Virus record (IMG/VR): IMGVR_UViG_2565956710_000002
Reading direction: 5' to 3' (one strand)
Length of the DNA: 14,827 nt
Source: a virus
Lineage: Duplodnaviria > Heunggongvirae > Uroviricota > Caudoviricetes
The position numbers were made by a program, and so were the translations under genes. Positions 4,283 through 14,827 of this stretch are shown here, piece by piece. Numbering within the stretch: the stretch's first letter is position 1; the number at the start of each line of letters is the position of its first letter. The notes beneath the pieces were generated by a model, which was given only the letters and a program-made list of their open reading frames with translations, was not told the origin of the DNA and did no database searches.

Positions 4283-4310
4283 ATTGTAAGTATAGTTCGC
4301 TTGTAAAAGC

Positions 4311-4345
4311 AATGCCCGATTGTGCGGGAACACAAATCGGGCATT
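4311..4345 (+). other. strong stem-loop in the early-operon leader
   Basis: AATGCCCGATTGTG (4311-4324) pairs with CACAAATCGGGCATT (4331-4345): 11 bp, a one-nt bulge, then 3 bp, with loop CGGGAA. No U-tract follows. Confidence 0.45.
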
Positions 4346-4373
4346 TAACCAACCGTTATAAGAGGTAACGAAG

Positions 4374-4550
4374 ATGGCTAAACAGAAGTGTACCTGGTTA
4401 TTTGCGGCGATCAACCGCAGTCAACGCAATGCCCGTCCTGTGATGTTAAGGATCACCGCAGATAACGAGCGGTCAGCGCGGCGCAGACTTGCCCCGGACT
4501 ATGTACTGAGCTTTGCCGGGCGCATTCCCTGCGGAGGTGAACATGCGTAA
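4374..4550 (+). CDS. small protein (58 aa), first gene of early operon; function unknown
   Basis: ATG at 4374 with AGAGG 8 nt upstream. Translation: MAKQKCTWLFAAINRSQRNARPVMLRITADNERSARRRLAPDYVLSFAGRIPCGGEHA. The stop overlaps the next gene's start region. Not in the ORF track (under 60 aa). Confidence 0.45.
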   Translation: MAKQKCTWLFAAINRSQRNARPVMLRITADNERSARRRLAPDYVLSFAGRIPCGGEHA

Positions 4551-5218: not shown

Positions 5219-5598
5219 ACCAGCCGCAGGTTTCCATTTTCCCGGCAGAAATGACCACCGCGCTTTACCGGCGGGCTATTGCTTCAGCATGGCGGCAGAA
5301 AATGCTGAACGAAACTGGCAGTGATCAGTATGGTCCGCACAGCCTGACGGTGGAGCGTATTGAAATGGCCATTGCGCTGCATATCGAGTGCGTACTGATT
5401 AACGAGTACGGCGAAGCACAGGGCGCCGCTGCCGCGCTGGCACTGCTGACTGACATGCTGGAGCCGTCACTGCTGACCGCGCCGCCGGTACTGACCGCGC
5501 GCGGCTGTGAAGTGATGGCGGAGATGTACCGCACGCTTCCGGCGGCCTTTGATGACTTCTGCAGTACCGGTGTGACGTTGTATCAGGGGGAAGTATGA
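5215..5598 (+). CDS. hypothetical protein (127 aa), early operon, coupled to the primase
   Basis: ATG at 5215 preceded by GAAGGAGG. The stop overlaps the alpha start (ATGA at 5595-5598). Confidence 0.65.
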   Translation: MNQPQVSIFPAEMTTALYRRAIASAWRQKMLNETGSDQYGPHSLTVERIEMAIALHIECVLINEYGEAQGAAAALALLTDMLEPSLLTAPPVLTARGCEVMAEMYRTLPAAFDDFCSTGVTLYQGEV

Positions 5599-8267
5599 CA
5601 ATACAGACGGTTACGCAGATTTCAGCCGCCGCACGGGGGAAATGGCCCGTTATTCTCCAGATGCTGCGTATTGATGTACCTGAAAACGGCAGGCACGGTC
5701 CCTGCCCGAAATGTGGGGGCAAGGATCGTTTTCGCCTTGATGACCTTGACGGGCGCGGGACGTGGATCTGCAGCCAGTGTGGCAATGGTGACGGTCTGGA
5801 TCTGGTTAAGCTCGTAACCGGTTACAGCGTCAGAAAGGCTGCGCAGGAGGTGGCGCAGGTGCTTAATGTGCCGGATGTGCAGGAACTGCCTGTTAAGCCT
5901 GCCAGACAAAAAGCCCCTAAACGCGACATGGGTCTTACCGTGGCGGCGCTGATGAAAGAGAGCCACACGGGAGAAAGCGCCTATCTGACAGGAAAAGGGT
6001 TCGCCGGATACCCGGCCTCTCTGACCGGAAGCGTGCAGCATATCAGCGGTAAGGATTTTCCTGCCGGTTCCCTGCTGTTACCACTCACGACCAACACCGG
6101 AGCCGTGACTGGTGCACAGCTTATCGCCCCGACGGGTGAAAAAAGCATACTGCCCGGCAGCACGATGAAAGGCGCGTTTGTGTCGCTCAGCCCGTTACCG
6201 TCTGAACCACCGGTACAGGTGGTGATTACCGAAGGTTACGCTACGGCGCTGACGGTAAGTCAGCTCACTGCCGGATGCGTAGTGGCTGCCATATCTGCGG
6301 GCAACCTGCCCAATGTGGCGCAGTCGCTGCGGGCACGCTGGCCTGAGGTAAAAATTATCATCGCCGGTGATAACGATTTTCAGGACGGAGGTGAGAATCC
6401 CGGCAGAGCCTTTGCTGAACGGGCGGCAAAAGCTGTTGGCGGCTGGATGACGCTGCCACCAGGAGAGATTAAGGCTGACTGGAATGACTTTCATCGGGAG
6501 CACGGTATTACCCGTGCCCGTGAAGCCTTTCGCAACGGTCTGGTACTGTGCGGGGAAGGCCGCACGCAACTGCCGCACGGGTTCCGTCTTACCCAGGAAT
6601 ATCTCTGGTATGAAAAGCAGGTACAGCGCAACGGTGAGACGGAGATCCAGAACGTCAAAATATGCAGCCCGCTGCGCGTGACGGCAATCACCTGCGATGC
6701 CGATGGCGGTAACTTCGGACGACTGCTGGAATGGGAAGATACGTGGGGTGAGTGTCGCCGCTGGGCGATGCCGATGGAAATGCTGAGCGGCAGTGGTGAG
6801 GAACTGCGCCGGGTACTGCTGGTTAACGGGCTGTCTTATATCAGCACCACCGGTGAGGCACGCGCACGCCTGATGGAATATATCTCACTGTGTAAACCGG
6901 AACGCCGCGTGACCTGCGTCAGTCGTACTGGCTGGCATGGTCAGGTTTACGTCCTGCAGGATGAGGTCAGCGGTGAAGGTGCAGAGGGTGTCATTCTCCA
7001 GACCACTTCCGTGCAGGGGCGTGATTTCCGCGTGTCGGGCACAACAGAGGAATGGCGGGAGCATGTATCCCGCTACTGTACCGGCAACTCCCGCGTGGCA
7101 TTTGCTGTCAGCCTGGCCTTTGCTGCACCACTGTTACGGCTGGTTGGTATGGACGGCGGCGGCTACCACCTCAAAGGGGAATCGACAGACGGTAAGACCA
7201 CCACCATGAAAGCGGCAACCTCCGTCTGCGGCGGGCCTGACTACTGGCAGACATGGCGGGCCACCGGCAACGCGCTGGAGGGATGCGCCAGCCGCCGCAA
7301 CGATGCCGCCATGATGCTTGATGAGATCCGGGAAGTTGACGGACGCGAGGCAGGCAATATCGCCTACATGCTGGCAAACGGTCAGGGCAAAGGCCGTGCC
7401 GGTACGGACGGTGAGCTGCGTACCCGTAAGCAGTGGCGCCTGTTGTTCTTTTCAACTGGCGAGTTGTCTCTGACCGAACATGCGGCAAAGGCCGGTGAGC
7501 GTACTTTTGCCGGGATGGAAGTCAGGATGATCCAGATCCCCAGCGATTCCGGGAAGTTTGGCGTTTTTGAGGAGCTGCACGGCTTCGACAGCGGCAAGGC
7601 TCTGGCAGAGCATCTTGAATGGGCCACGTCCTGCTACTACGGTTCGCCGTTCCGGGAGTGGCTGAAAGCACTGACCGCTGATCTTAACGGACTAACGGCA
7701 CAGGCAAAATCGCTGATGAAGGAATATGCTGCCGCCCTGACTCCGAAAGATGCAGGCAATCAGGTGGGCCGGGCTGTGAACCGCTTTGCTCTGGTGGCGA
7801 TGGCAGGTGAACTGGCAACCCGTCTGGGTATCACCGGCTGGCCTGAGGGTGAAGCACTGCGGGCAACCCGCGTCTGCCTGAACGCATGGCTGAAAGATCG
7901 CGGGCACACCGCCAATCAGGAAGATATCGCCGCACTGGAGCAGGTTCGCAGTTTCTTCACCGCGAATCAGTACAGCCGCTTTGCAGACTGGTATGACGAG
8001 CGCAACCGCCCCGGCAATATGGTGGGCTGGCGCAGGGTGGAGAAAGGCAGTACCGCGCAGGGCACGGAAGCTGTCACTACGTTCTATGTCATGCCGTCCG
8101 GCTGGAAAGAAATCTGCAGGGGATTTGACCCGCGCAAGGTGGCGCGTCTGTGCGCAGATCGTGGATACCTGCTGCCCTCCACTGATGGCAAACTCCAGAC
8201 AACCATTCGCCCGCCAGAGATGAATCCCCGCAGGCTCTATGTCTTCAACAGCGAGGTGCCGGGTTAA
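5595..8267 (+). CDS. P4 alpha-type primase-helicase (zinc-ribbon + TOPRIM primase + P-loop NTPase)
   Basis: 890 aa. N-terminal zinc ribbon CPKCGG...CSQCG; TOPRIM motifs ITEGYATAL and IIIAGDNDFQDGGENPG; Walker A GESTDGKTT. An iteron array follows immediately downstream. Confidence 0.9.
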   Translation: MTIQTVTQISAAARGKWPVILQMLRIDVPENGRHGPCPKCGGKDRFRLDDLDGRGTWICSQCGNGDGLDLVKLVTGYSVRKAAQEVAQVLNVPDVQELPVKPARQKAPKRDMGLTVAALMKESHTGESAYLTGKGFAGYPASLTGSVQHISGKDFPAGSLLLPLTTNTGAVTGAQLIAPTGEKSILPGSTMKGAFVSLSPLPSEPPVQVVITEGYATALTVSQLTAGCVVAAISAGNLPNVAQSLRARWPEVKIIIAGDNDFQDGGENPGRAFAERAAKAVGGWMTLPPGEIKADWNDFHREHGITRAREAFRNGLVLCGEGRTQLPHGFRLTQEYLWYEKQVQRNGETEIQNVKICSPLRVTAITCDADGGNFGRLLEWEDTWGECRRWAMPMEMLSGSGEELRRVLLVNGLSYISTTGEARARLMEYISLCKPERRVTCVSRTGWHGQVYVLQDEVSGEGAEGVILQTTSVQGRDFRVSGTTEEWREHVSRYCTGNSRVAFAVSLAFAAPLLRLVGMDGGGYHLKGESTDGKTTTMKAATSVCGGPDYWQTWRATGNALEGCASRRNDAAMMLDEIREVDGREAGNIAYMLANGQGKGRAGTDGELRTRKQWRLLFFSTGELSLTEHAAKAGERTFAGMEVRMIQIPSDSGKFGVFEELHGFDSGKALAEHLEWATSCYYGSPFREWLKALTADLNGLTAQAKSLMKEYAAALTPKDAGNQVGRAVNRFALVAMAGELATRLGITGWPEGEALRATRVCLNAWLKDRGHTANQEDIAALEQVRSFFTANQYSRFADWYDERNRPGNMVGWRRVEKGSTAQGTEAVTTFYVMPSGWKEICRGFDPRKVARLCADRGYLLPSTDGKLQTTIRPPEMNPRRLYVFNSEVPG

Positions 8268-8667: not shown

Positions 8668-9411
8668 ATGAACAATACCGCAGTAAATAACAACCTTTCC
8701 ACTTTTCCGGCTGTAACGCAGCGGGCACTGGAAACCATGAACACAGCCAGAAACGCATGGCTTGAAGCACGTCGTCAGCAGAAAGCGGCAGCGGATAATA
8801 TTGCGACAATCCGCCAGCGTCGCGCTGAAATGGAAGCCACGACGAACACACTGAATGAGGAGTGGCGCACGCTGTTTCGTGAAAGTCAGGGCGTGGTCTC
8901 AAAGGAAATGAAAAAACTGCGCACGGAAATTGCGCTGGGACGAGAAACGCTTGAGGATTTTGATGAGCTGCTGGCGGCTCAGGAAAGCGAAAATGCACTT
9001 TTGCCGCAGAAAGCTGCAGAATTAGCCGGAAAGTATATCCACGCGCATAACATTCTTGTGGATATTCGCGCAAAACAAATCTGGGAGGATTTTATGCAGT
9101 CGCATGGAAAAGCGCTTATTCAGACGCTGAGCCTGCTTAAATCCACAATGGGCCGGGAAGCCAGTGCCGTTGTGGGTGTGGTGAATTCAGTTAATGACCC
9201 GGACACAGTGCTGAAAGACTTTATTCATAAACATATCACCAGACCGGCTCTGGCTAACGATGCGATGCCTGAGCAGGACCCGGTGTTTAAACTGGCGGGA
9301 GTTGCCCCGGATTATGCGGCGCGTCTGGATTTCAGTAATCAACTCTCTCCGGCAGCTATGCATAAAATTAAGGTTCGTCAGGAACTTGCTGAGAAGGAGA
9401 AAGCAGTATGA
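8668..9411 (+). CDS. putative Sid-like capsid size-determination/external scaffold protein (assignment tentative)
   Basis: 247 aa, helical/coiled-coil-like composition, first gene after the late-promoter dyads. Size and position match P4 Sid. AGGAG 5 nt upstream of the ATG. Confidence 0.6.
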   Translation: MNNTAVNNNLSTFPAVTQRALETMNTARNAWLEARRQQKAAADNIATIRQRRAEMEATTNTLNEEWRTLFRESQGVVSKEMKKLRTEIALGRETLEDFDELLAAQESENALLPQKAAELAGKYIHAHNILVDIRAKQIWEDFMQSHGKALIQTLSLLKSTMGREASAVVGVVNSVNDPDTVLKDFIHKHITRPALANDAMPEQDPVFKLAGVAPDYAARLDFSNQLSPAAMHKIKVRQELAEKEKAV

Positions 9412-9959
9412 CGGCCCGAGGCACGCCTGACCAGGCACTTACCAGTTTTCGGAATGCCCGCATTCTGTGGGCCGGACATAATGAGAGCCGAAAAGCCGTT
9501 GAACAACAGATAACATCTCTCCTCGCTGCCACAGAAAAACCAGCAGATTATGCCCGACAGCTCGAATTACTGCGGGAACGTCTGGATGTGCTGAAATGGC
9601 AAATTAACTGTGCTGCGCGCGAATGCATTTACTCGCAGCATTTACTGATGGAGGCCTGCACAGAAGCCGCTCTCAGCAATTTTATGCAGGCGAATGGGGC
9701 AGCCCTGACATCTGCACTGGCTCCGTTCCTGAAGGGGCGCGGAGGGGTTGACGTTGCGTCCCGTATATTACGCAGTGCTCTGGTTCGCCAGCTGGCAATA
9801 ACACCGCCTGAAATTGCTGGGGATTATCGTGAGATCCTGGATGAATCCGGTTTGATGCCTGACCCCGGGATGATTCGTGATTGCCAGGGTTCTTACACCC
9901 CGGCACAACATCTGCGTTTTCAGCAACGCCTGAATGACATTAACGATATACAGGAGTGA
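9408..9959 (+). CDS. putative Psu-like protein (polarity suppression / capsid decoration); assignment tentative
   Basis: 183 aa, start overlaps the upstream stop (ATGA). Segments KWQINCAAREC, FMQANGAALTSALAPFL and YTPAQHLRF match my recollection of P4 Psu. Sits between the sid-like and ogr/delta-like genes. Confidence 0.6.
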   Translation: MTARGTPDQALTSFRNARILWAGHNESRKAVEQQITSLLAATEKPADYARQLELLRERLDVLKWQINCAARECIYSQHLLMEACTEAALSNFMQANGAALTSALAPFLKGRGGVDVASRILRSALVRQLAITPPEIAGDYREILDESGLMPDPGMIRDCQGSYTPAQHLRFQQRLNDINDIQE

Positions 9960-9964
9960 TATTA

Positions 9965-10237
9965 ATGGCACTTAAATGTCCGGAATGCGGTACAGTTGCA
10001 CACGCCAGAACAGCAGCCTATGAAGCTCCGTCAGTTAAACGCTCGTGGTATCAGTGCCAGAATCTGGAATGTTCCTGCACATTTACGGCACTGGAGAGTG
10101 TGGATAAGATAATCATGAAACCCCGGCGCAATGAACAGGAACCAGACAAATCACAACCCCCGGTAAAACAACAGCAAACGCTCAATCGCTATGGCTCCGC
10201 GTCAAAACTGTCAAGCCGTCAGCAGATTCCTGTCTGA
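9965..10237 (+). CDS. Ogr/Delta-family zinc-finger late transcription activator
   Basis: MALKCPECGTVAHARTAAYEAPSVKRSWYQCQNLECSCTFTALESVDKIIMKP matches P2 Ogr (CPxC...AHART...YQCQN..CS.TF..ESV..I.KP). GGAG lies 8 nt upstream of the ATG at 9965; the ORF track begins 9 nt earlier at a GTG. Confidence 0.85.
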   Translation: MALKCPECGTVAHARTAAYEAPSVKRSWYQCQNLECSCTFTALESVDKIIMKPRRNEQEPDKSQPPVKQQQTLNRYGSASKLSSRQQIPV

Positions 10238-10258
10238 TTAGAAAAAAACGCCCACGTA

Positions 10259-10284
10259 ATCCCGGTCGAGTACCGGGATTTTTA
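10259..10284 (+). terminator. rho-independent terminator after the late operon
   Basis: 8-bp GC-rich stem ATCCCGGT/ACCGGGAT with loop CGAGT, followed by TTTTT. Confidence 0.6.
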
Positions 10285-10631
10285 ACACCTTTTCCCTGGC
10301 TGGCCTGAGAGCGTATGAGTGCATGTCTATGGCGCATGAAAATGCATGAGTCTTATGCACCCTTTTTGAGGCGAAAACCTTTGTGTGGTGGTATCTGAGA
10401 CGATTTATGGCATGCATGAAAACCAGTCTGTTAAGCGAAGCGGGCAGGCGTGCGGGGCTGCCCGCGTAAGGGCGTTGAATGGTATAACTATGGCACGGTT
10501 ACCGCATGTTTTGAGCTGTAATCGAAGTTATGAAAATTACTATATAAAGCGGTCGCTGTTGTGGAGATACGATTGCGGGAAGTGATGGAAAGAGCTATAA
10601 AAAGTACAGAGGATAGTTTAATGAGGGTATT

Positions 10632-11909
10632 ATGAACCGTCAGCCGTTTACTTCAGCAGCACTTAAACGAAACTTAAGTGAAAGTGAGAAGGCTTATTAT
10701 TTTAAAAAAAATAATGTTGCTGAGTTAGAATCATTAATTAGTGATGCCGTTTTAATTGCTAATGAGAATTTTCGCTCTGGTGTGAGTGTAAAGAAACTAA
10801 ATATTAAGGGACGCTGCGTTTACACTGCTTCATGTTTGAAGGAAAAAATAATACTTAGACATTGCAATGCAAATTTAAAATGCCTTGAATCGCTTCGTCC
10901 CAAACAACGAAATACAATAATTAGTGAGCTTAAAATTTATTTGGAAGAAGGTACTCCATTCAAAATATATCGTTTGGATATAAAGTCTTTCTTTGAATCA
11001 ATTGATTTACCGCAGCTTTTTCAGCTCTTACATAACGAAACACGACTGTCTAGACATACAAAAAATTTGCTAGAATGGTATCTTAAATCGTGTGAAAGGC
11101 TTCACTCTTCGAAAGGATTACCTAGAGGGTTAGAAATTAGTCCTATGTTATCAGAATTGTACTTGGCACAATTTGATAATAGTATTCATAGGCATCCAGA
11201 AGTATTTTATTATTCAAGATTTGTAGATGATATGGTAATCGTTTCAAGTGGTTGTGAATGTGAAGCGTCCTTTATGGAATTTATACAAGATGTATTACCA
11301 AAGGGATTGGCTTTAAATAAAAATAAATTAAAAATATCTCCATGCATACCAAAGAGAAGTAAGGGTTCAAATAAACAGGATAAATTGCTTCATGAATTTG
11401 ACTTTCTAGGGTACTCGTTTTCTATAATAGACACACCTTTGAGCAAAGATGGTGAGATTAATAGCTGTTACAGAAAGGTTGTTGTTAATTTATCTAAATC
11501 TCGCCTGAAGAAAATTAAAACAAGAATAGCTAGGTCTTTCTACTCTTATCATATTAATGGTGATTTTAAACTATTGCTAGACAGGATTTCTTTTTTGACT
11601 AGCAACAGGGATTTAAATCGCAAAATAAAATCGTTAAGTTCTTTAGAAAAAAGCAAGATAAGTACAGGTATTTATTACAGTAATGCGAAGTTAGATGTTG
11701 ACTCCATATCCCTAAAAAAATTAGATGACTTTTTGCTATATTGTGTGCAATCTAATACTGGGCGTTTGAATAGTGTTGCAAAAAAACCTTTTAATTTGAA
11801 GCAAAAAAAAGAACTGCTAAGAAATAGTTTTAGAAAAGGCTTTGTGGATAGAGTATATAGAAAGTATAACTTTAAGCGCTATACTGAGATTACAAAAATA
11901 TGGTTATAA
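10632..11909 (+). CDS. reverse transcriptase 1 (425 aa), first gene of dual-RT operon; UG3-like by architecture (unverified)
   Basis: RT motifs read from the translation: motif 2 YRLDIKSFFESID (D116), motif 4 GLPRGLEISPMLSELYLAQFD, motif 5 FVDD (D199-D200, nt 11226-11231), motif 7 FDFLGYSF, plus a ~170-aa C-terminal extension. Strongly AT-rich. Overlaps the next gene by 10 nt. Confidence 0.85.
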   Translation: MNRQPFTSAALKRNLSESEKAYYFKKNNVAELESLISDAVLIANENFRSGVSVKKLNIKGRCVYTASCLKEKIILRHCNANLKCLESLRPKQRNTIISELKIYLEEGTPFKIYRLDIKSFFESIDLPQLFQLLHNETRLSRHTKNLLEWYLKSCERLHSSKGLPRGLEISPMLSELYLAQFDNSIHRHPEVFYYSRFVDDMVIVSSGCECEASFMEFIQDVLPKGLALNKNKLKISPCIPKRSKGSNKQDKLLHEFDFLGYSFSIIDTPLSKDGEINSCYRKVVVNLSKSRLKKIKTRIARSFYSYHINGDFKLLLDRISFLTSNRDLNRKIKSLSSLEKSKISTGIYYSNAKLDVDSISLKKLDDFLLYCVQSNTGRLNSVAKKPFNLKQKKELLRNSFRKGFVDRVYRKYNFKRYTEITKIWL

Positions 11910-13918
11910 AGAAAAACATTAAACTTGATAAGAAAGATTATCTCAGGGCTTTACTATGTGATACACTGCCCGGTGATTGTCCAATTATTTTTTCAAATGA
12001 TGGCTTATATATAAACTTAACAGAATATGATAGAGTTTGTAATGATTTGTTACATTTTACTCCGGTTTCTTCTTTCTTAAAAAAAATAGTTAACCCTAAT
12101 TTAGACTCTTCTATTAGTGTCGCAGATCGCCACCGAGAAAAGAAGAAACAAAGCTCCCCATTTGGCTATTGTATAGTAAAAGATGCCTTTAGCCAAAGAC
12201 ATCTTTCTTTAATTCACCCAAGATCTCAAATTAATTATTCGGAATTTTATAAAACATACTCATCCGTTATCACATTAAATACTTTAAAAAGTAATTTTTC
12301 TATTCGCTACCCACGTAAGGTCGCTAACTCTTTCTTTTTATATGAAAATAATGCTTTGGAAAAATATAAAGGGGAAGATATCGAAACAACAAAGGATGAG
12401 TTAATGAGGAAATATTCATCCTCTTATTTTAGTTATGGCGGTTTCAACAGGATATATAAACTATTTCAAAGTAAGATGTTTATTGAGCTTGAGAAAAGAT
12501 TCTCGGTGATGTGGATGTTAGATGTATCACATTGTTTTGATAGCATATATACGCATTCGGTTTCTTGGGCATTAAAAAATAAATCATATATCAAAAAACA
12601 TGTTAAACACAGCAATCAATTTGGACAAGAATTAGATACACTGATGCAACGTAGCAATAATAATGAAACAAATGGAATACCTATTGGTTCAGAGTTTAGC
12701 AGGGTTTTTGCAGAATTAATATTTCAGCGAATTGATTGCAATATTGAGTCATGCCTTCTTAGTGAACATGGATGGGTTAATAATAAAGATTATGTTATAT
12801 TGAGATATGTAGATGATTTTATTGTTTTTTGTAATGGTGAGTCAAGTGCCGAAGTTATTACAAAAATAATTAATGTGAAGTTAAATGAATATAATCTACA
12901 ATTAAATGTAAACAAGCTTAAGAAGTATTCTAGGCCATTTTGCACTAGCAAGACAAGTTTGATTGTCAAAGTTAATGAATTAATTCGCAATTTAGAAATT
13001 AAACTGTATGAAAAACGTGATAGTGGCTTTACTTTAAATAAAATAAGAAGTAAGCATGATTTAAAGATATATGTAATTAATCATGTCAAGTCTATATGCA
13101 TTGAAAATCAAGTGTCTTATTCTGATGTTTCATCATATATAATATCATCTCTTTCCAAAAGATTAATATCAATAATTGATATATTACGAGTTCAAGAAAA
13201 TGAAGATGATGTAGATGTAAAAAAAAGGATTAAGGACTTAATTTTCACAATAACCGATATTATGTTGTTCTTTTTCAGTGTTAACCCAACTGTTTCATCA
13301 TCTTATAAATTATCAAAGACAATGGTTGTTGTTAATAACTATTTGAATGAAATATCTAGTGACTATAGTAGTATTTTTATGACTACGTTAGTGAATACTG
13401 CGGAAAACATTAATTTTGGTGAGAATGATAATGGGCTGTTTATTGATGATTTCATTTCAATTGAAAAGGTTAATTTAATCTTGGCTGCTACTTTTTTTGG
13501 AGATAATTATCTTATAAGTGACAGTTTTTTTCATGGAGTTATACATAAAAAGAAATTGGACTACTTTACTATAATCTCACTGCTATTCTATTTTAGAAAC
13601 AGAAGATCATTCCGAAAATTGAAGTGTATAATAGAGGGTGAAATAAAGGAAATATTAAGTTCTAATATGGATTTGCTGCAATCATCGGAAAAGGCACATT
13701 TATTTTTGGATGTCATGTCATGTCCATTTGTCTCAATAGAGACAAGGCGTTTTTTATATAGAAAATATCTCAAGAGCTATGAGCCAAAGCTGAACAGAAG
13801 TCATCTGGAGATTGAGAATGATTTGCAATCTCTGCTTCAAACATATTGGTTTGTCAAGTGGGATGAGTTAGATATTGTGAAAATGATTGAGAAAAAAGAA
13901 TTGAAAGAAAGCTATTAA
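11900..13918 (+). CDS. reverse transcriptase 2 (672 aa), second gene of dual-RT operon; UG8-like by architecture (unverified)
   Basis: Motif 2 WMLDVSHCFDSIY (D208), motif 4 GIPIGSEFSRVFAELIFQRID, motif 5 YVDD (D305-D306, nt 12812-12817). About 200 aa N-terminal and 350 aa C-terminal extensions with no recognisable nuclease domain. ATG at 11900 overlaps the upstream stop at 11907-11909. Confidence 0.85.
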   Translation: MVIKKNIKLDKKDYLRALLCDTLPGDCPIIFSNDGLYINLTEYDRVCNDLLHFTPVSSFLKKIVNPNLDSSISVADRHREKKKQSSPFGYCIVKDAFSQRHLSLIHPRSQINYSEFYKTYSSVITLNTLKSNFSIRYPRKVANSFFLYENNALEKYKGEDIETTKDELMRKYSSSYFSYGGFNRIYKLFQSKMFIELEKRFSVMWMLDVSHCFDSIYTHSVSWALKNKSYIKKHVKHSNQFGQELDTLMQRSNNNETNGIPIGSEFSRVFAELIFQRIDCNIESCLLSEHGWVNNKDYVILRYVDDFIVFCNGESSAEVITKIINVKLNEYNLQLNVNKLKKYSRPFCTSKTSLIVKVNELIRNLEIKLYEKRDSGFTLNKIRSKHDLKIYVINHVKSICIENQVSYSDVSSYIISSLSKRLISIIDILRVQENEDDVDVKKRIKDLIFTITDIMLFFFSVNPTVSSSYKLSKTMVVVNNYLNEISSDYSSIFMTTLVNTAENINFGENDNGLFIDDFISIEKVNLILAATFFGDNYLISDSFFHGVIHKKKLDYFTIISLLFYFRNRRSFRKLKCIIEGEIKEILSSNMDLLQSSEKAHLFLDVMSCPFVSIETRRFLYRKYLKSYEPKLNRSHLEIENDLQSLLQTYWFVKWDELDIVKMIEKKELKESY

Positions 13919-14059
13919 TTTGATAAATATGAGTCGTGGTCAGTTTCAAAATACTTACGTCATCGTCGTCGGTGTATTTTATATCGATTATGAAGACGAT
14001 TTCGCTGGAACTGAAATCGGCTTGAATGCTTAAACTTAAGCTAAAAAAACAGTTTGAGA

Positions 14060-14090
14060 CCAAAGCCTAAATTATTAGGCTTTGGATTTT
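14060..14090 (+). terminator. stem-loop with short T-run downstream of the RT operon (terminator or structured RNA element)
   Basis: CCAAAGCCTAA (14060-14070) pairs perfectly with TTAGGCTTTGG (14075-14085), loop ATTA, followed by ATTTT. Confidence 0.5.
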
Positions 14091-14310
14091 CAGGTTCAGT
14101 TGAGAGTAATTGCTGTCTGTTTATTGCTTAACCAATACAGTTAGTGGTGCTTACACACCTGATGTTGAGAAACTGACCACACCAATACAACCTTTTGTTT
14201 GTCTTCAACTGTGTAGACTACTAAACACGAATCAGCAGTTAGGGGCATGTATGGGGGCATTGGTTTTAATTTTTTATAAAATATCAATTTTTTCATATTG
14301 TTAAGTTATT

Positions 14311-14335
14311 GTTCGACTCCTATTATCGGCACCAT
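14311..14335. repeat. att core direct repeat, copy 2 (junction between the two tandem elements)
   Basis: Exact 25-bp copy of the tRNA 3' end (1421-1445), followed by arm motifs similar to those after copy 1. Confidence 0.8.
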
Positions 14336-14488
14336 TCTAACGTCTCCCCAAGTCTACTCAAGTATTTAAAAACCTCTTATAATCAGTATATTAATGCCCC
14401 TTTTAGTCTTTTGACGTCTATTTAAGTACCCCAAACTCTACAAGCAATTGAGGGGATTTGCTGTTCAGTTTAGTGGAGATACCCCCAA

Positions 14489-14827
14489 GTGAAACTCAAT
14501 GCCCGTCAAATAGACACTGCCAAGCCAAAAGAGAAGGCTTACAAGTTGGCTGATGGTGGTGGTCTGTACCTCCTGGTAAAACCTGGTGGAGGAGAATATT
14601 GGCGTCTCAAGTATCGTGTAGCTGGTAAAGAGAAGCTGTTAGCACTAGGTGTGTATCCTGAGGTCACCTTAGCTGATGCTCCTGCAAAACTTGAAGAAGC
14701 TAAAAGAGGTATCTCTGGGGGAATCGATCTGATGGAAGTGAAGCGAGAGGAAAAGATTGCCCGGGAAACGCAGTTAAACAACACCTTCAAAGATATTGCC
14801 CTTGAGTGGCACAGTAACAAATTATAA
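14489..14827 (+). CDS. second P4-type integrase, N-terminal 112 codons ending at an in-frame TAA (likely truncated or disrupted)
   Basis: GTG start. MKLNARQIDTAKPKEKAYKLADGGGLYLLVKPGGGEYWRLKYRVAGKEK aligns with the first integrase N-terminus. Reading frame ends EWHSNKL-TAA at 14825-14827, where the first integrase continues for ~290 more residues. Confidence 0.7.
   Translation: MKLNARQIDTAKPKEKAYKLADGGGLYLLVKPGGGEYWRLKYRVAGKEKLLALGVYPEVTLADAPAKLEEAKRGISGGIDLMEVKREEKIARETQLNNTFKDIALEWHSNKL

Follow-up and report, generated by a model that had tools for sequence, protein, structure and literature searches.

A predicted DRT3 non-coding RNA downstream of drt3b in a P4-like satellite of E. coli

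DRT3 phage-defense systems, which bring together reverse transcriptases (RTs) of the UG3 and UG8 groups, were previously found to carry an RNA partner. Mestre et al. described a structured, conserved RNA lying no more than 300 nucleotides (nt) downstream of UG8, with an exposed 'CACACA'-like motif that is globally conserved and whose distance to the RT stop "varies greatly"; the sequence and structure of the RNA are group-specific, and UG3+UG8 pairs were found in variable regions of P4-like prophages (bioRxiv 10.1101/2021.12.02.470933). In EcoDRT3, a non-coding RNA (ncRNA) encoded downstream of drt3b is required, and a 5'-ACACAC-3' loop, which is adjoined by 'stem-loop 4', serves as the template from which DRT3a makes poly(dTdG) (Wang, Yoneyama et al., bioRxiv 10.64898/2026.05.04.722794). 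DRT3b makes poly(dCdA) in a protein-templated reaction, the two products form double-stranded DNA that is restrained by RecBCD, and immunity is triggered by phage Gam; a promoter for the ncRNA is not discussed in that preprint (bioRxiv 10.64898/2026.05.04.722794). A cryogenic electron microscopy structure of a Drt3a:Drt3b:ncRNA complex with 6:6:6 stoichiometry is reported under PDB 9z6y/9z6z (Deng et al. 2026, as cited in PMC13314766). Here we analyze a 14,827-nt stretch of viral DNA (IMG/VR record IMGVR_UViG_2565956710_000002; hereafter the window), in which a pair of adjoining RT genes is followed by a region that very probably encodes the ncRNA of a DRT3 system.

A DRT3 operon and the core of its ncRNA

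The two RT genes and the predicted RNA lie in a single-strand order, drt3a-drt3b-ncRNA, which their coordinates confirm:

10632-11909, + strand: drt3a (UG3, class 2 RT); PADLOC Drt3a, E = 2.1e-131; Pfam RVT_1
11900-13918, + strand: drt3b (UG8, class 1 RT); PADLOC Drt3b, E = 7.7e-204, full length
13936-14180, + strand: predicted DRT3 ncRNA, conserved structured core of 245 nt, from conservation, covariation and minimum free energy (MFE)

The genes overlap by 10 nt, and drt3b, called RT2 in an earlier note on this DNA, ends in a TAA stop at 13916-13918. Among PDB entries, the product of drt3a matched 9z6y_A 'Drt3a' (E = 2.5e-56) and that of drt3b matched 9z6y_H 'Drt3b' (E = 3.6e-113); an identical E. 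coli gene carries the RefSeq name drt3b. The catalytic motif is intact in both RTs, as FVDD in Drt3a, which aligns to YVDD of EcoDRT3a, and as YVDD in Drt3b (Y303-V304-D305-D306), which is invariant across a 33-sequence alignment. By these matches the dual-RT operon is a DRT3 phage-defense system (UG3+UG8), which a satellite carries in its variable cargo region, between delta and attR. A retron msr-msd RNA was considered and rejected: the RNA follows the RT genes, both RTs score far better as Drt3a and Drt3b than as retron RTs, and there was no Rfam match.

The earlier note had proposed that a structured ncRNA acting as template or scaffold follows RT2, at 13919-14100. The DRT3 identity of the operon and the covariation described below bear out the kind of element, but its extent has to be redrawn as 13936-14180. 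The interval 13919-14100 ends 80 nt short of the conserved 3' end and omits the ACACAC template, and with high confidence we assign it as the 5' two-thirds of a DRT3 ncRNA whose predicted core lies on the + strand. The core begins 18 nt past the drt3b stop, on the same strand and within ~300 nt. In the window's clade, which comprises 18 homologues whose Drt3b is at least 61% identical, the sequence is conserved from 13936 to ~14185, beyond which conservation collapses. The core folds with an MFE of -86.8 kcal/mol (z = -7.97) and the interval 13919-14100 at -57.6 kcal/mol (z = -5.97), which none of 200 shuffles matched; 14181-14310, beyond the core, is unstructured (z = -0.25). The + strand is favored because of its conserved G-U pairs and its better fold (-86.8 vs -70.2 kcal/mol for the - strand).

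Covariation across homologous dual-RT loci, which the earlier note had named as a check, was strong. For a curated consensus on a 21-sequence alignment, 94.8% of cells were paired, compared to 33-44% in slid-partner controls; compensatory changes occurred in 22 of the 47 pairs, and none of 500 shuffles equaled the consensus on any of five measures. When the full window MFE was mapped onto the 18 homologues, 85% of it was paired, with 38 compensatory pairs, and RNAalifold and the window's own MFE agreed on the plan. The element accompanies drt3b beside differing flanking genes. The DRT3 loci used here came from E. coli genomes, a genome scan, metagenome and viral contigs, and exact-protein look-ups. 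The metagenome and viral loci were found with a 33-protein Drt3b alignment, the look-ups covered Drt3b proteins 51-90% identical, and the scan of genome contigs with a single Drt3b protein yielded one locus only.

The template motif lies near the 3' end of the core:

14153-14158, + strand: ACACAC, putative Drt3a template for poly(dTdG), its function taken from the literature

This motif starts 235 nt past the drt3b stop and is the sole copy near the operon. Its weight as evidence rests on conservation, because the count of ACACAC in the window alone is not above chance (5 found vs 5.6 expected). On the coding strand no more than 450 nt downstream of drt3b, ACACAC was present in 93 of 95 distinct loci, at offsets of +28 to +240, and GTGTGT in 8 of the same 95 regions. 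In the predicted fold ACACAC is unpaired, between a stem-loop at 14104-14152 and the 3' strand of the closing helix P1. A GGUG/CACC hairpin that covers the template in the window's MFE (helix 11) was rejected, as substitutions break its pairing.

Predicted fold and alternative readings of the region

The predicted core is closed by P1 and is made up of the following parts, in addition to the template:

13936-13947, + strand: P1 5' strand GUGGUCAGUUUC, pairing with 14169-14180
13948-13957, + strand: conserved junction AAAAUACUUA
13958-13998, + strand: stem-loop A, a variable hairpin; base CGUC 13958-13961 with GACG 13995-13998
14002-14103, + strand: P2 domain; 14002-14008 with 14096-14103 (bulge 14100) and 14011-14016 with 14088-14093, enclosing three hairpins
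14019-14030, + strand: small hairpin GGC/GCU inside P2; 96.7% paired, one compensatory pair
14035-14058, + strand: hairpin CUUAAGCU/AGUUUGAG inside P2; six pairs tested, four compensatory, 95% paired
14060-14085, + strand: 11-bp hairpin, a clade-specific peripheral arm in the P2 multiloop
14104-14152, + strand: stem-loop directly 5' of the template; base GAGUA 14104-14108 with UGCUU 14148-14152
14159-14168, + strand: invariant linker CUGAUGUUGA, single-stranded; the order is ACACAC-CUGAUGUUGA and then P1
14169-14180, + strand: P1 3' strand GAAACUGACCAC, pairing with 13936-13947

The 5' strand of P1, GTGGTCAGTTTC (13936-13947), and GAAACTGACCAC (14169-14180) are exact reverse complements, and the helix is used in both the 382-nt and the 245-nt folds. 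All 12 pairs form in 22 of the 26 loci sharing the ACACACCTGATGYTGA motif, five pairs show compensatory changes, and in some clades both strands are wholly different in sequence. Next to P1, AAUA 13950-13953 may pair with UGUU 14163-14166 to form a candidate helix P1b, whose bases are nearly invariant; P1 and P1b together (helix 1) are 98% paired. Other clades have a motif related to the junction, AAUAU, after P1. Directly 5' of the template, the stem-loop at 14104-14152 has a base that is 97% paired with one compensatory pair and an inner stem that is 77% paired with three. Its base pairing, 14104-14108/14148-14152, competes with 14000-14001/14104-14105, an extension of P2, in columns that hardly vary. 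A hairpin abuts ACACAC in every clade inspected, and by analogy this one is a candidate template-boundary element.

The stem of the 11-bp hairpin, CCAAAGCCTAA/ATTA/TTAGGCTTTGG, is perfect and is followed by ATTTTC, with four T; it starts 142 nt past the drt3b stop, in agreement with the ~140 nt given in the earlier note, which also mentions the short T-run. One alternative to a 245-nt ncRNA is a plain 3' untranslated region of the drt3a-drt3b mRNA that ends at an intrinsic terminator formed by 14060-14085 and the T-run, with a functional ncRNA, if any, only at ~14100-14185. The window does have a perfect, GC-containing 11-bp hairpin followed by UUUU, and the experimentally validated EcoDRT3 ncRNA has a strong intrinsic terminator at its 3' end, which the covariance model of its clade weakly aligns to 14060-14085. 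Against this, the hairpin is an internal arm, spanned and enclosed by P1 and P2, both of which covary, and conservation is unbroken from 13936 to ~14185. The T-run is itself part of the fold: UUUUCAG after the hairpin is the 3' strand of P2b, covaries with CUGAAA and changes with its partner in homologues. A hairpin of 7-11 bp occupies this site in all 18 homologues of the clade, with several unrelated stem sequences, and a plain MAFFT alignment already shows compensatory changes at 6 of 8 pairs. In other homologues the hairpin is interrupted by an internal loop or a mismatch or has a shorter stem, and the UUUU tail is confined to the closest relatives (the run is longer in L111 and is at most three U in all others). 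In the three loci whose Drt3b is 51-54% identical, the hairpin site is only 3 nt long. The terminator scan did not call the hairpin, as only four T follow it, and we rejected 14060-14085 as an intrinsic terminator given that both the template and covarying helices are found farther 3'. We consider the reading as a plain untranslated region very unlikely.

Still less probable is a compact ncRNA contained within 13919-14100, built from two small pairings that the earlier note had picked out and ended by the 11-bp hairpin. Both pairings exist in the window. ATCGTCGTC (13962-13970) can pair with GAAGACGAT (13992-14000) with one mismatch (G13968/A13994), but this is not the conserved register: it is 71% paired across homologues and indistinguishable from shuffles. 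A CGTC repeat permits several registers, and the conserved one is CGUC 13958-13961/GACG 13995-13998, the base of stem-loop A, which is 96% paired with three of its four pairs compensatory; the upper stem differs in sequence and length among homologues. For the second pairing, GAAATCG lies at 14013-14019 as the earlier note had it, but CGATTTC is at 13997-14003 and not 13998-14004. It can form in 89-95% of cells across homologues and could be a transient alternative conformer, but there are no compensatory changes and every non-wobble substitution breaks the pairing. CGATTTC/GAAATCG overlaps both strands of P2, and substitutions that break it are compensated in P2b. The long-range P2 helix (14002-14016/14088-14103), in which 8 of 13 pairs are compensatory and 88.8% of cells are paired, outperforms it. 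The two small pairings also share bases 13997-14000 and therefore partly exclude each other. Finally, the interval lacks ACACAC, the sole feature common to nearly all DRT3 ncRNAs.

Least probable of all is that the conservation reflects a satellite cis site (integrase arm or packaging) or a small open reading frame (ORF; 13854-14063, - strand, or 14110-14304, + strand): attR is 130 nt away and mechanical ORFs overlap the region, but the element follows drt3b among unrelated flanks, its variation consists of compensatory changes and of indels that are not multiples of three, the 14110-14304 ORF has no Pfam match, and the window contains no P4 cos consensus.

Comparison with characterized systems and a predicted promoter

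The DRT3 ncRNA proposed here is an ordinary member of a described family, and little about it is new. It has the position, strand, ACACAC and group-specific structure of the RNA surveyed by Mestre et al., at a variable offset from the stop (+28 to +240; +235 here), and it shows no difference in kind, being among the longer versions. We located the EcoDRT3 ncRNA (E. coli ECOR12, 161 nt, Table S3) 16 nt past the drt3b stop in locus L101. Like the window RNA, it has a closing helix P1 starting 16-18 nt past the stop, internal hairpins, an unpaired ACACAC immediately 3' of a stem-loop and a few nt 5' of the P1 3' strand, and a TTG...TAnnnT promoter-like motif at an equal distance from the 5' end. 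The two differ in size, 245 nt in the window compared to ~133 nt plus a terminator in EcoDRT3. Of the two, only the window RNA contains the long-range helix P2 with its three arms; it lacks an intrinsic terminator after P1, whereas EcoDRT3 ends in a strong one.

The DRT3 system of 9z6y/9z6z has its three components in common with the window, and 9z6y corresponds to the clade of locus L094. Read by eye, RNAs of the L094 clade resemble the window's in having P1 followed by AAUAU, (U)GAGAG upstream of a short stem-loop next to ACACAC, and GAUGAG just ahead of the P1 3' strand; their template lies ~125 nt past the stop, and they lack both the three-arm P2 domain and the 11-bp arm. The template RNAs of DRT10 and DRT9 and telomerase RNA likewise have a short single-stranded template with a helix immediately 5' as its boundary and yield a tandem-repeat product. 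However, they fold differently and serve RTs of other clades, and in DRT3 there is a further RT that works by protein templating; the likeness is one of function and not of membership.

A promoter-like motif precedes the RNA, overlapping the end of drt3b:

13901-13929, + strand: predicted ncRNA promoter; -35 TTGAAA 13901-13906, 17-nt spacer, TG 13921-13922, -10-like TAAATA 13924-13929

TTGAAA encodes a Leu and a Lys of Drt3b, and the Leu, five codons before the stop, is conserved. Its codon is TTG in 47 of 49 loci, whereas in the rest of the genes TTG accounts for 20% of Leu codons. TGnTA follows 17-18 nt after the TTG in 31 of the 47 loci and ends 11 nt past the stop; P1 starts at +17 to +20 from the stop, 6-9 nt after the TGnTA motif, and the 5' end of the EcoDRT3 ncRNA (Table S3) is 7 nt after the equivalent hexamer. 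A consensus promoter scan did not call the motif at 13901-13929. Judging from this pattern, the ncRNA probably has a dedicated promoter overlapping the last drt3b codons and a start at ~G13936. It may not be the "untranslated tail of the operon", because the conserved promoter-like motif predicts a start of its own at ~13936.

In the loci most distant from the window (L021-L083, Drt3b 26-30% identical), ACACAC lies just 28-45 nt past the stop and there is no C-terminal Leu/TTG motif, and therefore the 5' part of their RNA would be much shorter and their expression route different.

Several observations weigh against assigning this region to a DRT3 ncRNA with its own promoter. The characterized systems are distant: the L101 Drt3b, which corresponds to PDB 26cz, is 31% identical to the window's, that of the L094 clade is 36% identical, and Drt3a is only 32% identical to EcoDRT3a. 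A covariance model of the EcoDRT3 clade, built on five sequences, gave no meaningful match in 13700-14500 (best 7.1 bits, E ~0.1), and its best alignment was spurious, deleting the template region. This miss counts against membership of the EcoDRT3 subgroup and not of the family, and it is consistent with group-specific divergence. An Rfam search of the whole window at E up to 1 returned a tRNA-Thr and two sub-threshold chance matches, none of them in 13900-14300, and a consensus scan called no terminator after the ncRNA, from 14181 to attR. The alignments, of 18-21 sequences, sample only a handful of independent lineages, and the structure tested was taken in part from the window's own MFE, which favors it in the slid-partner comparison. 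As for the promoter, the -10-like hexamers, the window's included, mostly lack the canonical final T.

The satellite locus and what the RNA may do

E. coli chromosomes, such as that of strain H22, match the window with 100% identity, and the window holds a P4-like satellite integrated at tRNA-Thr. Its other features are:

1369-1444: tRNA-Thr
1540-2799: integrase, assigned from its position beside the tRNA alone
5595-8267: primase-helicase, from Pfam
8668-9411 and 9408-9959: two ORFs with a Psu domain, from Pfam
9956-10237: Ogr/Delta zinc-finger protein, from Pfam
14310-14334, + strand: attR, a copy of the tRNA-Thr 3' end, 24 of 25 nt identical to 1420-1444

The duplication of the tRNA-Thr 3' end (1420-1444 and 14310-14334) bounds a 12.9-kb satellite, whose right end, attR, lies 130 nt past the ncRNA. 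The ORF at 8668-9411 matches the Psu (polarity suppression) family over its C-terminal half only (E = 1.8e-9), and the pair 8668-9411/9408-9959 is presumably the Sid/Psu pair of P4-like satellites. A 394-nt gap (10238-10631) separates the delta-like gene from drt3a. In the early region of the satellite, 4308-4379 on the - strand gave an Rfam match to the SymR antitoxin RNA at 31.6 bits, against a gathering score of 61 (E = 0.011), which is sub-threshold and probably due to chance. The P4/P2 cos consensus GGCGAGGCGGGGAAAGCAC was not found anywhere in the window with up to three mismatches, and the packaging site of the satellite was not located. Just after attR, at 14489, a second integrase gene (Arm-DNA-binding) begins and runs through 14489-14827 in the window, indicating two islands in tandem at tRNA-Thr; in many E. 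coli genomes the second junction is the only one present.

Between the ncRNA and attR, a direct repeat, GGGGCAT, occurs at 14242-14248 and 14254-14260. Similar GGGGCAT/GGGGGCAT pairs occupy the equivalent place in homologous loci L002, L108, L121 and L001, and these repeats may be integrase arm-type binding sites. In two E. coli loci with Drt3b 80% identical to the window's, L003 (about 1058-1140) and L115, a 9-nt tandem repeat, CCCATGCTT, directly follows the 3' helix of the ncRNA; one RefSeq record annotates this repeat region as a hypothetical protein on the opposite strand.

Taken together with what is known of other DRT3 systems, the fold suggests how the RNA would work. The sequence here points to transcription of the ncRNA from its own promoter, with a start at ~13936. 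The 12-bp P1 helix would close the RNA around a variable hairpin, the three-hairpin P2 domain and a stem-loop abutting the template. By extension from other DRT3 systems, Drt3a would bind the ncRNA and copy ACACAC repeatedly into poly(dTdG) in a telomerase-like manner, with the template boundary set by the adjacent stem-loop, and the ncRNA would double as a scaffold for the Drt3a-Drt3b complex. The DNA product would be restrained by RecBCD and build up when phage Gam inhibits RecBCD.

The boundaries 13936-14180 matter in practice for cloning and deletion, as a construct cut near 14100 would lose the template. They also matter for annotation. In the RefSeq records of these E. coli genomes, drt3a and drt3b are named but the ncRNA is not annotated, and Rfam has no model for it; therefore the essential third component is invisible to standard pipelines. 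We think it unlikely, with a chance that is small without being negligible, that the locus departs from what has been described in one of two ways: either the clade-specific parts of the 245-nt ncRNA do something that the characterized RNAs do not, or the ncRNA is an independent transcription unit with a promoter in the last drt3b codons. The clade in question is that of enterobacterial, satellite-borne DRT3, and its specific parts are the three-arm P2 domain and the near-perfect hairpin with UUUU, 63 nt upstream of the template. If the former were true, the extra arms could add protein contacts that alter assembly of the complex, or could partially stop transcription and so tune the level of the template-bearing RNA. 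The clade-specific expansions and the predicted promoter would add modestly to a mechanism that is already established for other DRT3 systems.

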